A stretch of 14,634 nucleotides of DNA. Source: an uncultured archaeon (lineage in GTDB: Archaea; Altiarchaeota; Altiarchaeia; IMC4; QMZM01). Where the stretch lies: assembly GCA_964549685.1 (NCBI GenBank), contig CAZJVE010000020.1:1-14634 (forward strand). The letters are read 5' to 3'. Position 1 is the first letter of the stretch. Every line of letters starts with the position of its first letter. Positions 1-139 of the stretch are shown here, piece after piece. A program made the translations under genes and the position numbers. Under the pieces are notes generated by a model. The model was not told the origin of the DNA. It worked only from the letters and a program-made list of their open reading frames with translations, and searched no databases.

Positions 1-124
1 CGAGGTGGAGTTCTATGGTTTCGTTGATGTTGAATTCCTCTTTGTCCGCCTCCAGATTCACGGTGGTTGCGGAAATTCCCTGTATCAGCAGGAGAATTCC
101 CAGGATTAGGATTGTTTTTTTCAT
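1..124 (-). CDS. Secreted hypothetical protein, N-terminal part (runs off the window); paralog of 4321..4899
   Basis: Manual translation from ATG at 124: MKKTILILGILLLIQGISATTVNLEADKEEFNINETIELHL. Signal-peptide-like; 30/41 residues identical to the N-terminus of 4321..4899. Not in the ORF track. Confidence 0.85.
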   Translation of the reverse strand, partial: MKKTILILGILLLIQGISATTVNLEADKEEFNINETIELHL

Positions 125-139
125 CTATGAAAACACCTC

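Follow-up and report, generated by a model that had tools for sequence, protein, structure and literature searches.

At one edge of a 14,634-nucleotide stretch of DNA from an uncultured archaeon, referred to here in its full length as the window, the right end of an insertion sequence (IS) abuts the start codon of a host gene, and a second copy of the element ends in the same way further along. All genes in the window lie on the minus strand, and on that strand both copies terminate in GAGGTG-TTTTCATAG-ATG, with a spacer of 9 nt between GAGGTG and the host ATG, as the initial annotation had recorded (134–139 for ATG 124; 8059–8064 for ATG 8049). The question raised by this arrangement is whether the end of the element was selected as a Shine–Dalgarno (SD) sequence for the gene that it displaced, or whether GAGGTG is there for another reason. 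Positions 122–139 belong to an archaeal IS of the IS1111 family and form its right end, composed of the right subterminal inverted repeat (sTIR-R) and a 3-bp extension, which abuts the host start codon. The parts of the two copies and the genes beside them are arranged as follows.

124 to 1370, minus strand: IS copy 1, 1247 bp, transposase frameshifted (repeat family, BLAST, IS1111 7/3-bp extension rule)
1061 to 1306 and 282 to 977, minus strand: transposase fragments of copy 1
1351 to 1363, minus strand: sTIR-L of copy 1, ATGAAAACACCTC, preceded by the 7-bp extension TGACGAC (1370 to 1364)
127 to 139, minus strand: sTIR-R of copy 1, the feature under study, GAGGTGTTTTCAT, followed by the 3-bp extension AGA (126 to 124), its final A also serving as the first letter of the host ATG
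139 to 134, minus strand: GAGGTG of copy 1; host ATG at 124 to 122
1 to 124, minus strand: host gene downstream of copy 1, first 41 codons, with a signal-peptide-like N-terminus; it continues on contig C23, 177 aa in total
8049 to 9295, minus strand: IS copy 2, 1247 bp, transposase intact (repeat family, BLAST, uninterrupted site in genome G001, locus L230)
8207 to 9232, minus strand: transposase gene of copy 2, 341 aa, ATG at 9232, with AAGGAGGTG upstream at a 6-nt spacer (Pfam)
9276 to 9288, minus strand: sTIR-L of copy 2, preceded by a 7-bp extension (9295 to 9289)
8052 to 8064, minus strand: sTIR-R of copy 2, followed by the extension AGA (8051 to 8049)
8064 to 8059, minus strand: GAGGTG of copy 2; host ATG at 8049 to 8047
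7651 to 8049, minus strand: host gene downstream of copy 2, 132 aa, with a Nitro_FeMo-Co domain (Pfam, E 5.5e-21)

The repeated sequences span about 118–1375 and 8043–9300 and are 85% identical overall, with 92–98% identity over the last 250 nt and 64–90% over most of the interior, where two 50-nt bins reach 92% and 98%. Both copies encode the domains PF01548 (DEDD_Tnp_IS110, E 4.8e-31 in copy 2) and PF02371 (Transposase_20, E 1.3e-24 in copy 2), and at residue 247 of the intact 341-aa transposase is the motif GLVPRVYQSG, matching the GL-P----S(T)G signature of IS1111 transposases. The closest solved structures are those of the RNA-guided recombinases ISCro4 (9t56, E 9.1e-24) and IS621 (8wt6, E 5.9e-23). 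In both copies sTIR-L and sTIR-R are perfect inverted repeats (13/13 bp), and the non-coding DNA is unevenly distributed, with 157 nt downstream of the transposase gene against about 56–63 nt upstream. The main text of PMC11187229 defines IS1111 elements by a transposase of ~340 aa (about 330–350) with the GL-P----S(T)G motif, non-coding DNA downstream of its gene, subterminal repeats of 11–13 bp, and terminal extensions of unequal length, 7 bp at the left end and 3 bp at the right. These sequence features place the element in the IS1111 family (IS110 superfamily, DEDD), as a new representative from an uncultured marine archaeon. Ribosomal protein L19e is present, a family matched among 14 control genomes only by the 4 archaeal ones, in keeping with an archaeal host.

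Searches for further copies at the level of order and phylum, made with the protein, returned none, with matches in 5 of 49 genomes at E ≤1e-40 and in 4 of 61 at E ≤1e-70. An exact 14-mer of the right end was also sought in genome contigs; it gave 120 stretches, and the 80 loci inspected had no related transposase adjacent to them apart from a weak partial one at L045 (29% over 135 aa), so that these were set aside as chance matches. At Rfam gathering thresholds no family matched either IS copy; the only Rfam match in the window is a group II intron.

Both junctions of both copies are found at 100% identity in contigs of run X3, from a different study, and are therefore not assembly artefacts; no contig aligned to the window skips either copy. 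The uninterrupted form of the site is preserved elsewhere. G001, a genome of the same genus, has an orthologue of the copy 2 host gene (81% aa identity), and the sequence ahead of it is intact, ...GGGGCAGAGCATAGA-ATGA-AAATTGC; at this site, which reads ...GCATAGA-ATGA-AAATTGC, the two flanks of copy 2 meet without the element between them. A second uninterrupted allele, that of the gene downstream of copy 1, reads ...ATATAGA followed directly by ATG in contigs of runs X4 and X1, with 4–5 differences over 124 nt.

As ATGA stands at both junctions, the crossover fell within it (in copy 1 at 1371 to 1368 and 124 to 121). The uninterrupted site allows left and right extensions of 8 and 2, 7 and 3, 6 and 4, 5 and 5, or 4 and 6 bp, and placement of the break at A^TGA yields exactly 7 (TGACGAC) and 3 (AGA), the IS1111 rule as given in the main text of PMC11187229. 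The element is then 1247 bp long, at 9295 to 8049 and 1370 to 124, and the A of each host ATG is, with this placement, formally IS-derived. Insertion thus took place at TAGA^ATGA, with the host ATG rebuilt at the right junction, and, as read from the sequence, the target is approximately TAGA-ATGA-A. The element sits at start codons in the same orientation as the host gene, rebuilds the ATG and places a 6-nt anti-SD complement 9 nt upstream of it, and to that extent the reading of the initial annotation is supported.

The displaced genes themselves are intact: the protein downstream of copy 2 is complete at 132 aa with its Nitro_FeMo-Co domain, and that downstream of copy 1 reaches 177 aa by way of C23. 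Alignments (tblastn) of the copy 2 host gene to relatives in family genomes start within query residues 1–3, at the rebuilt ATG (24 rows, in which several loci appear twice).

Insertion is specific for site and orientation, with right junctions reading ...CATAG-ATG(A/G) in 7/7 archaeal cases. Four of these junctions open long ORFs (132, 177, 286 and >242 aa), as would suit a right repeat selected to serve the gene behind it; the remaining three lead into ORFs of only 37, 20 and 19 codons, which argues against such selection. So do two bacterial-looking relatives with the same ...TTTTCATAG-ATGA junction, L173 and L215, whose downstream ORFs run to no more than 3 and 27 codons; the flank of another such element, L218, is uninformative, as it leaves its contig after 2 codons. 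The target alone, moreover, predicts frequent insertion at gene starts, since 8 of the 20 free TAGAATGAA sites in G000, the genome of the window, look like gene starts (about 40%). Its sequence, stop-A-ATG-AAx, is typical of places where two genes meet, and nothing more is needed to explain what fraction of the insertions fall at gene starts.

How the element would find this target can be read from the non-coding region downstream of its transposase gene, in which two guide-like segments spell the junctions TAGA-ATGA-C and ATAG-ATGA-A.

8116 to 8202, minus strand: seekRNA-like core of copy 2; segment 1, TAGAATGAC (8192 to 8184), corresponds to the left junction and segment 2, ATAGATGAA (8133 to 8125), to the right junction
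192 to 277, minus strand: seekRNA-like core of copy 1; segment 1 at 267 to 259, segment 2 at 209 to 201

Because the guides spell the junctions, they would direct insertion, in one orientation, to TAGA^ATGA-A sites. The correspondence holds across relatives. In G017, with a transposase 62% identical, the left junction is xAAA-ATGA-CGAT and segment 1 is likewise changed, to ...AAAATGAC. Among metagenome relatives 38–48% identical, segment 2 tracks the right junction of its own element (ATGGGAGG, ATTGGAGG, ATAGGTGAC, ATGGGTGAT, ATAGGAGTA and ATAGATGAx). All 19 elements scored have in their non-coding region a match of at least 7 nt to their own right junction, averaging 8.6 nt, compared with 5.8 nt when elements are mismatched (328 pairs). 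Directly 5' of segment 2 is a short GC hairpin with compensatory changes in 3/4 predicted pairs (RNAalifold on the cores of 13 non-coding regions, a rough alignment from which only a 4-pair hairpin was recovered). The fold of the whole right-end non-coding region alone is not distinctive (z −1.05; 28/200 shuffles as stable). Guide segments that co-vary with the junctions across relatives are the seekRNA pattern, and the RNA itself is putative.

Turning to the right end itself, GAGGTG has the sequence expected of an SD. The 3' tail of 16S rRNA reads ...GGATCACCTCC in 6/6 family genomes for which a 16S locus was returned (the G000 assembly is without a 16S gene), and GAGGTG is a perfect 6-nt complement of that tail. 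The position is less favourable. Native GAGGTG motifs peak at a spacer of 6 nt (19 cases), followed by 5 nt (10) and 7 nt (9), and a spacer of 9 nt, outside this native range of 5–7 nt for a functional SD, occurs in 7 cases including both IS copies against an in-frame background of 3–8, so that it is not enriched. Of the two native genes cited in the initial annotation for a 7-nt spacer, the one with ATG 11207 has it, and the one with ATG 10070 has a spacer of 6 nt. In bacteria a 9-nt spacer lies within the workable range. A weak predicted hairpin, pairing GUUUUCA with UGAAAAU, covers the host AUG.

Strong SDs are in any case rare in this genome. A complement of at least 6 nt to the 16S tail lies 3–12 nt upstream of the first ATG in 58/1586 long ORFs, and at control positions 150 nt inside ORFs in 19/1586; in all, an SD of at least 6 nt stands ahead of 58–85 of the 1586, a usage that counts against the reading of the right end as an SD for the host gene. 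GAGGTG upstream of an ATG is thus a rare motif, and the two copies share descent, so that they count as one event, not two.

Whether the repeat was selected as the SD of the displaced host gene, rendering insertions at start codons non-polar and so tolerated, can now be weighed. The initial annotation held that the IS replaces a translational coupling that it destroys. This is not supported by the uninterrupted sites of G001 and of X4/X1, in which none of GGAGG, GAGGTG or GGTGA precedes the ATG; with no SD at these sites, none was destroyed that needed replacement. Its observation that the sense strand lacks a strong terminator does stand, and suits a non-polar insertion: each copy has only T4 runs and one T5 run, and a scan of 7900–9450 for intrinsic terminators returned none.

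The form of the repeat in relatives points both ways. A GGTG-type motif is kept at the same distance in G013 (GAGGTG), G022 (GGAGGTG, N10), G017 (AAGGTG, at three junctions) and G009 (GGGGTG), as selection for host translation would predict, but the outer G of the right repeat has drifted in G017 and G009, and the left repeats seen (twice in G000, and in G017 and G008) keep CACCTC. In copy 1, which is dead, the 92–98% identity kept over the right end could reflect selection at the level of the host. Cousins that insert at SD motifs mostly have no SD-like right repeat (L160, L198, L189, L211, L194, L209 and L216), again in favour of a link between the repeat and start-codon insertion; L149, L156 and L159, inserted at host SDs, nevertheless retain GGAGG or GAGGG right repeats that are redundant there, ~20 nt from the ATG. 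The initial annotation had proposed that relatives with other targets be compared, taking the same repeat in elements that never insert at start codons as evidence against its reading, and this evidence is partly present.

Taken together, selection for SD activity on the host gene is unlikely, with perhaps one chance in several of being correct. SD activity in itself is a separate matter: on a read-through mRNA, it is plausible that GAGGTG has genuine, if sub-optimal, activity as an SD for the host gene. A further possible coupling route is offered by a 12-codon ORF at the right end whose TGA overlaps the host ATG (8046 to 8084, minus strand, MNRINLKRCFHR and stop; in copy 1, 159 to 121, MNRINLMRCFHR and stop).

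A better account of GAGGTG comes from the left end of the element, where the transposase gene has its own SD at a spacer of 6 nt, the native optimum, compared with 9 nt at the host ATG. The left end of each copy is predicted to fold into a stable hairpin.

9237 to 9283, minus strand: left-end hairpin of copy 2, dG −25 kcal/mol, z −6.13, 0/200 shuffles as stable
1311 to 1358, minus strand: left-end hairpin of copy 1, dG −22.7 kcal/mol, z −6.96

In the predicted pairing, AACACCUCCU, in and just 3' of sTIR-L, is joined to AAGGAGGUGUU, the transposase SD, and the outer stem covers the region of the transposase AUG. The same relationship recurs with differing sequences: the minimum-free-energy fold of 22/25 relatives pairs 6 nt or more of the transposase start region with the sTIR-L region (for example, GTAGCGCACC with GGTGCGCTAT, and GGCTACCTCCT with AGGAGGTAGCC), and the left-end fold has z ≤−2.5 in 23/25, L149 and L207 being weak (−1.0 and −1.2). 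The three relatives without sTIR pairing in the minimum-free-energy fold are L159, L173 and L215.

The left repeat (...AACACCTCC) would accordingly act as an anti-SD, pairing with the transposase SD (AAGGAGGTGTT) about 35 nt downstream, and the pairing would mask the transposase start region in transcripts entering from the left; we infer from the predicted folds that the hairpin regulates transposase translation. As the inverted copy of the left repeat, the right repeat is bound to reproduce part of the transposase ribosome-binding site. In the archaeal branch the part copied includes GAGGTG, whereas in many bacterial-looking relatives it is the spacer and start codon, leaving right repeats that are not SD-like. 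The distance of 9 nt to the host ATG would likewise be set by the fixed geometry of sTIR, 3-bp extension and core. The hairpin does not force the repeat to include an SD-like part, as the layouts of L218, in which the repeat ends short of the anti-SD, and of L173 and L215, in which a good distance separates the repeat from an anti-SD further downstream, make clear.

We consider that GAGGTG is probably best explained as the mirror of the left-repeat anti-SD that is predicted to mask the transposase SD, its position at the right end following from this geometry. Such an origin is compatible with real SD activity, for which the perfect 6-nt complement and the intact downstream genes would allow: in read-through mRNA, GAGGTG may give the host gene some sub-optimal SD activity, as a by-product or, at the most, in a subsidiary role. 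That the repeat merely happens to hold GAGGTG, with no translational role at either end, is very improbable. The two copies do represent a single ancestral event, and the repeat sequence varies widely among relatives, as coincidence would have it; set against this are the hairpin z-scores of −6 to −7, the start-region pairing that persists in 22/25 relatives although their sequences differ, and the occurrence of an SD of at least 6 nt at only about 1% of control positions.

Short ORFs at the left end suggest a further role for the right repeat, on behalf of the element itself and not of the host.

9285 to 9296, minus strand: left-junction mini-ORF ATG ACG ACA TGA (MTT and stop), its ATG being the host start codon as duplicated at the left junction; in copy 1 at 1371 to 1360
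9288 to 9268, minus strand: ORF MKTPPQ and stop, from the sTIR-L ATG across the anti-SD arm, its start overlapping the TGA of the preceding mini-ORF

Translation of MTT and then of MKTPPQ would open the hairpin and switch on the transposase, and in an excised circle the right repeat, 9 nt before the first of these start codons, would drive the relay. IS1111 insertion proceeds through a circular intermediate with a junction promoter (main text of PMC11187229); among contigs aligned to the window, no excised-circle junction was present, which counts against the relay here. The mini-ORFs are found in both copies, and the arrangement is kept in G017 (MTI and stop, then MKTPRE and stop) and G008 (MTT and stop, then MKNTS and stop), both read partly or wholly by eye. 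Among SD-targeting relatives with enough flank, 13/14 have a host SD 5–6 nt before the sTIR-L ATG, and in 9 of those 13 a 3-codon ORF ends in a TAG that lies inside the repeat; L217, with its flank cut off, has the 3-codon ORF as well. Every left repeat compared starts with ATG, partly owing to how the elements were picked. The case is nonetheless drawn from sequence, and AT-rich ends readily yield short ORFs; the ORF from the sTIR-L ATG ranges from 1 to 50 codons across relatives, and the transposase would respond to host translation, the opposite of the usual protective logic. We regard this role as doubtful, more so than selection for the host gene.

Promoter-like signals add little to either end. 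With a sigma-70 model, 1 promoter-like site was detected where 1.7 were expected, a result that is uninformative for an archaeon. An AT-rich, TATA-like stretch directly before the right repeat was considered as an outward promoter for the host gene and set aside because, by hand count, transcription would start a few nucleotides past the junction.

Beyond the archaeal branch, the element has relatives that seek other translation signals. In 10/23 strictly scored relatives the right end is followed directly by SD-N3-9-start-ORF, which indicates that these insert at SD motifs, and the SD-inserting cousins, bacterial-looking and from metagenomes, leave SD-N5-9-ATG intact on the right. A wider proposal, tentative and on balance unlikely to hold in full, is that the whole IS1111-type seekRNA-guided clade, in bacteria and archaea, is built to plug into translation-initiation regions. 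The guides would spell either an SD (GGAGG or AGGTGA types) or a start codon (ATGA type), and the core would leave the host signal working on the right. On the left, the host signal, 5–6 nt before the sTIR-L ATG or itself an ATG, would drive a leader mini-ORF into the anti-SD arm, coupling the transposase to host translation. For archaeal elements at start codons, the displaced gene would also receive an SD from the right repeat.

The locus provides a worked natural example of RNA-guided IS1111 site choice in an uncultured marine archaeon, with guides that appear readable from sequence and an uninterrupted site confirming that the start codon was split and rebuilt. It also illustrates that an SD look-alike at the end of an IS need not be an adaptation to the host gene, as repeat symmetry together with self-regulation of the transposase would produce one. 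If the clade-wide pattern were true, it would link IS1111-type seekRNA-guided elements to the older translation-signal seeking of the IS900 type, and would offer natural designs of guides and ends that keep downstream genes expressed.

Of the known systems, the nearest are ISEc11, ISKpn4 and ISPa11, IS1111 elements with a seekRNA (Siddiquee et al. 2024, main text of PMC11187229), which have in common with the element described here a ~340-aa DEDD transposase with GL-P----SG, subterminal repeats of 11–13 bp, 7/3-bp extensions, a long downstream non-coding region with short matches to the target, and site- and orientation-specific insertion without true duplication. Unlike them, the present element has an archaeal host, targets a start codon and its flanks (TAGA^ATGA-A), and is known from sequence alone. 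Its left repeat, in addition, doubles as a predicted anti-SD, and the main text of PMC11187229 makes no mention of sequestering, a hairpin, a stem-loop or translation. It also differs from its bacterial-looking relatives in having no TTGACA-type −35 box before the right repeat.

The bridge-RNA recombinases IS621 and ISCro4 have a homologous transposase, RNA-guided choice of target and donor, and a core common to both; sequence identity to them is low, and in IS621, unlike the element here, the guide RNA lies upstream of the gene and there are no subterminal repeats (main text of PMC11187229). In the literature passages surveyed, nothing was found on an IS end supplying an SD or on IS1111 elements targeting start codons.

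Among IS110-family elements, IS900 and IS901 of Mycobacterium avium seek translation-initiation signals (passages of PMC2942039 and PMC8141618). IS900-type insertion falls between the host SD and the start codon, whereas the crossover here lies within the ATGA of the start codon itself, and cousins of the present element insert at the SD; the behaviour is akin to that of IS900, at a different site. IS900 is proposed to use the host signals for hed, a gene on its opposite strand. The element here is instead of the IS1111 type, and the host signal would feed the mini-ORFs and the displaced host gene.

The closest parallel to the left-end hairpin is with IS10 and IS50, in which a hairpin at the left end is said to mask the transposase ribosome-binding site in read-through transcripts, so that these are poorly translated. 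In those elements, as is predicted here, the SD and start codon of the transposase are paired with a sequence close to the left end; unlike in IS10 and IS50, the pairing partner here would be the subterminal inverted repeat itself, so that its mirrored form, at the other end, presents the host gene with a sequence resembling an SD.

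The two copies of the IS1111-family element differ unevenly along their length. The last 250 nt of copy 1 (124–1370) and copy 2 (8049–9295), a stretch spanning the C-terminal end of the transposase together with the non-coding region, are 92–98% identical, and remain so even though a 1-nt difference near 1070–1080 puts a frameshift into the copy 1 transposase. Across most of the interior, identity is 64–90%, with two 50-nt bins at 92% and 98%. This pattern could be due to gene conversion, to selective constraint acting on the guide RNA, or to some role that the right end plays at host level.

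Located within the right end is a short reading frame that runs into the downstream host gene:

8046–8084, - strand: 12-codon ORF MNRINL(K/M)RCFHR* of copy 2, its TGA overlapping the host ATG
121–159, - strand: the same ORF in copy 1, with the same overlap

Read by eye, locus L008 of the archaeal genome G022 carries a 16-codon ORF with the same ending, and locus L003 of G017 an 11-codon ORF with a TAG stop directly before the ATG. An ORF of this kind is absent from G009 and G013. The mini-ORF may provide a route of coupling to the host gene, or may have arisen by chance.

The surroundings of copy 1 bear on the history of its insertion:

1–124 and 1360–1375: flanks of copy 1

Window positions 1–55 overlap the start of another contig (C23), on which the gene downstream of copy 1 runs on to 177 aa; a paralogue of this gene lies at 4321–4899. 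The two flanks were probably apart in the genome originally rather than adjacent: if the IS were excised precisely, a MinD-like ORF would read straight on into the downstream ORF, in the same frame and without an intervening stop codon. In the uninterrupted allele (runs X4 and X1) the left neighbour, too, is a different one: a radical-SAM-like stretch, at a distance of about 152 nt. These observations point to recombination or another rearrangement between the IS copies.

Unoccupied TAGAATGAA sites number 20 across all contigs of the genome that the window comes from (G000), where a uniform 9-mer estimate would predict about 9; eight of the 20 are at probable gene starts. These sites are candidates for future insertion.

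Beyond copy 2, a repeat search (direct repeat D10 and inverted pair I1) identified a 30-nt motif with the palindromic core TGAATATATATTCA:

9756–10079: DUF5320 gene
10080–10109: 30-nt motif, just upstream of the DUF5320 gene
11235–11561: DUF134 gene
11562–11591: 30-nt motif, just upstream of the DUF134 gene

The motif looks like an operator common to both genes, and the DUF134 DNA-binding protein is possibly its binder. At the window end is a putative group II intron, with the reverse-transcriptase ORF immediately upstream of the catalytic RNA match:

13662–13762, - strand: match to the catalytic RNA of group II introns (RF00029; 52 bits, E = 5.7e-08)
13776–14627, - strand: reverse-transcriptase ORF (RVT_1; E = 6.1e-23), reaching the window end

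Flank comparison at 13 metagenome loci (L160, L198, L199, L176, L189, L211, L194, L195, L209, L216, L221, L222 and L149), with transposases 38–48% identical to that of the window, placed the insertion points of these relatives at Shine–Dalgarno motifs. Their right flank starts with GGGAGG, GGAGG or GGTGA, followed 3–9 nt on by a start codon and ORF, and TTGACA is present at the right end, just before the right repeat. On the left, the flank's terminal Shine–Dalgarno motif lies 5–6 nt ahead of the initial ATG of the left repeat, which often opens a 3-codon ORF with a TAG stop.
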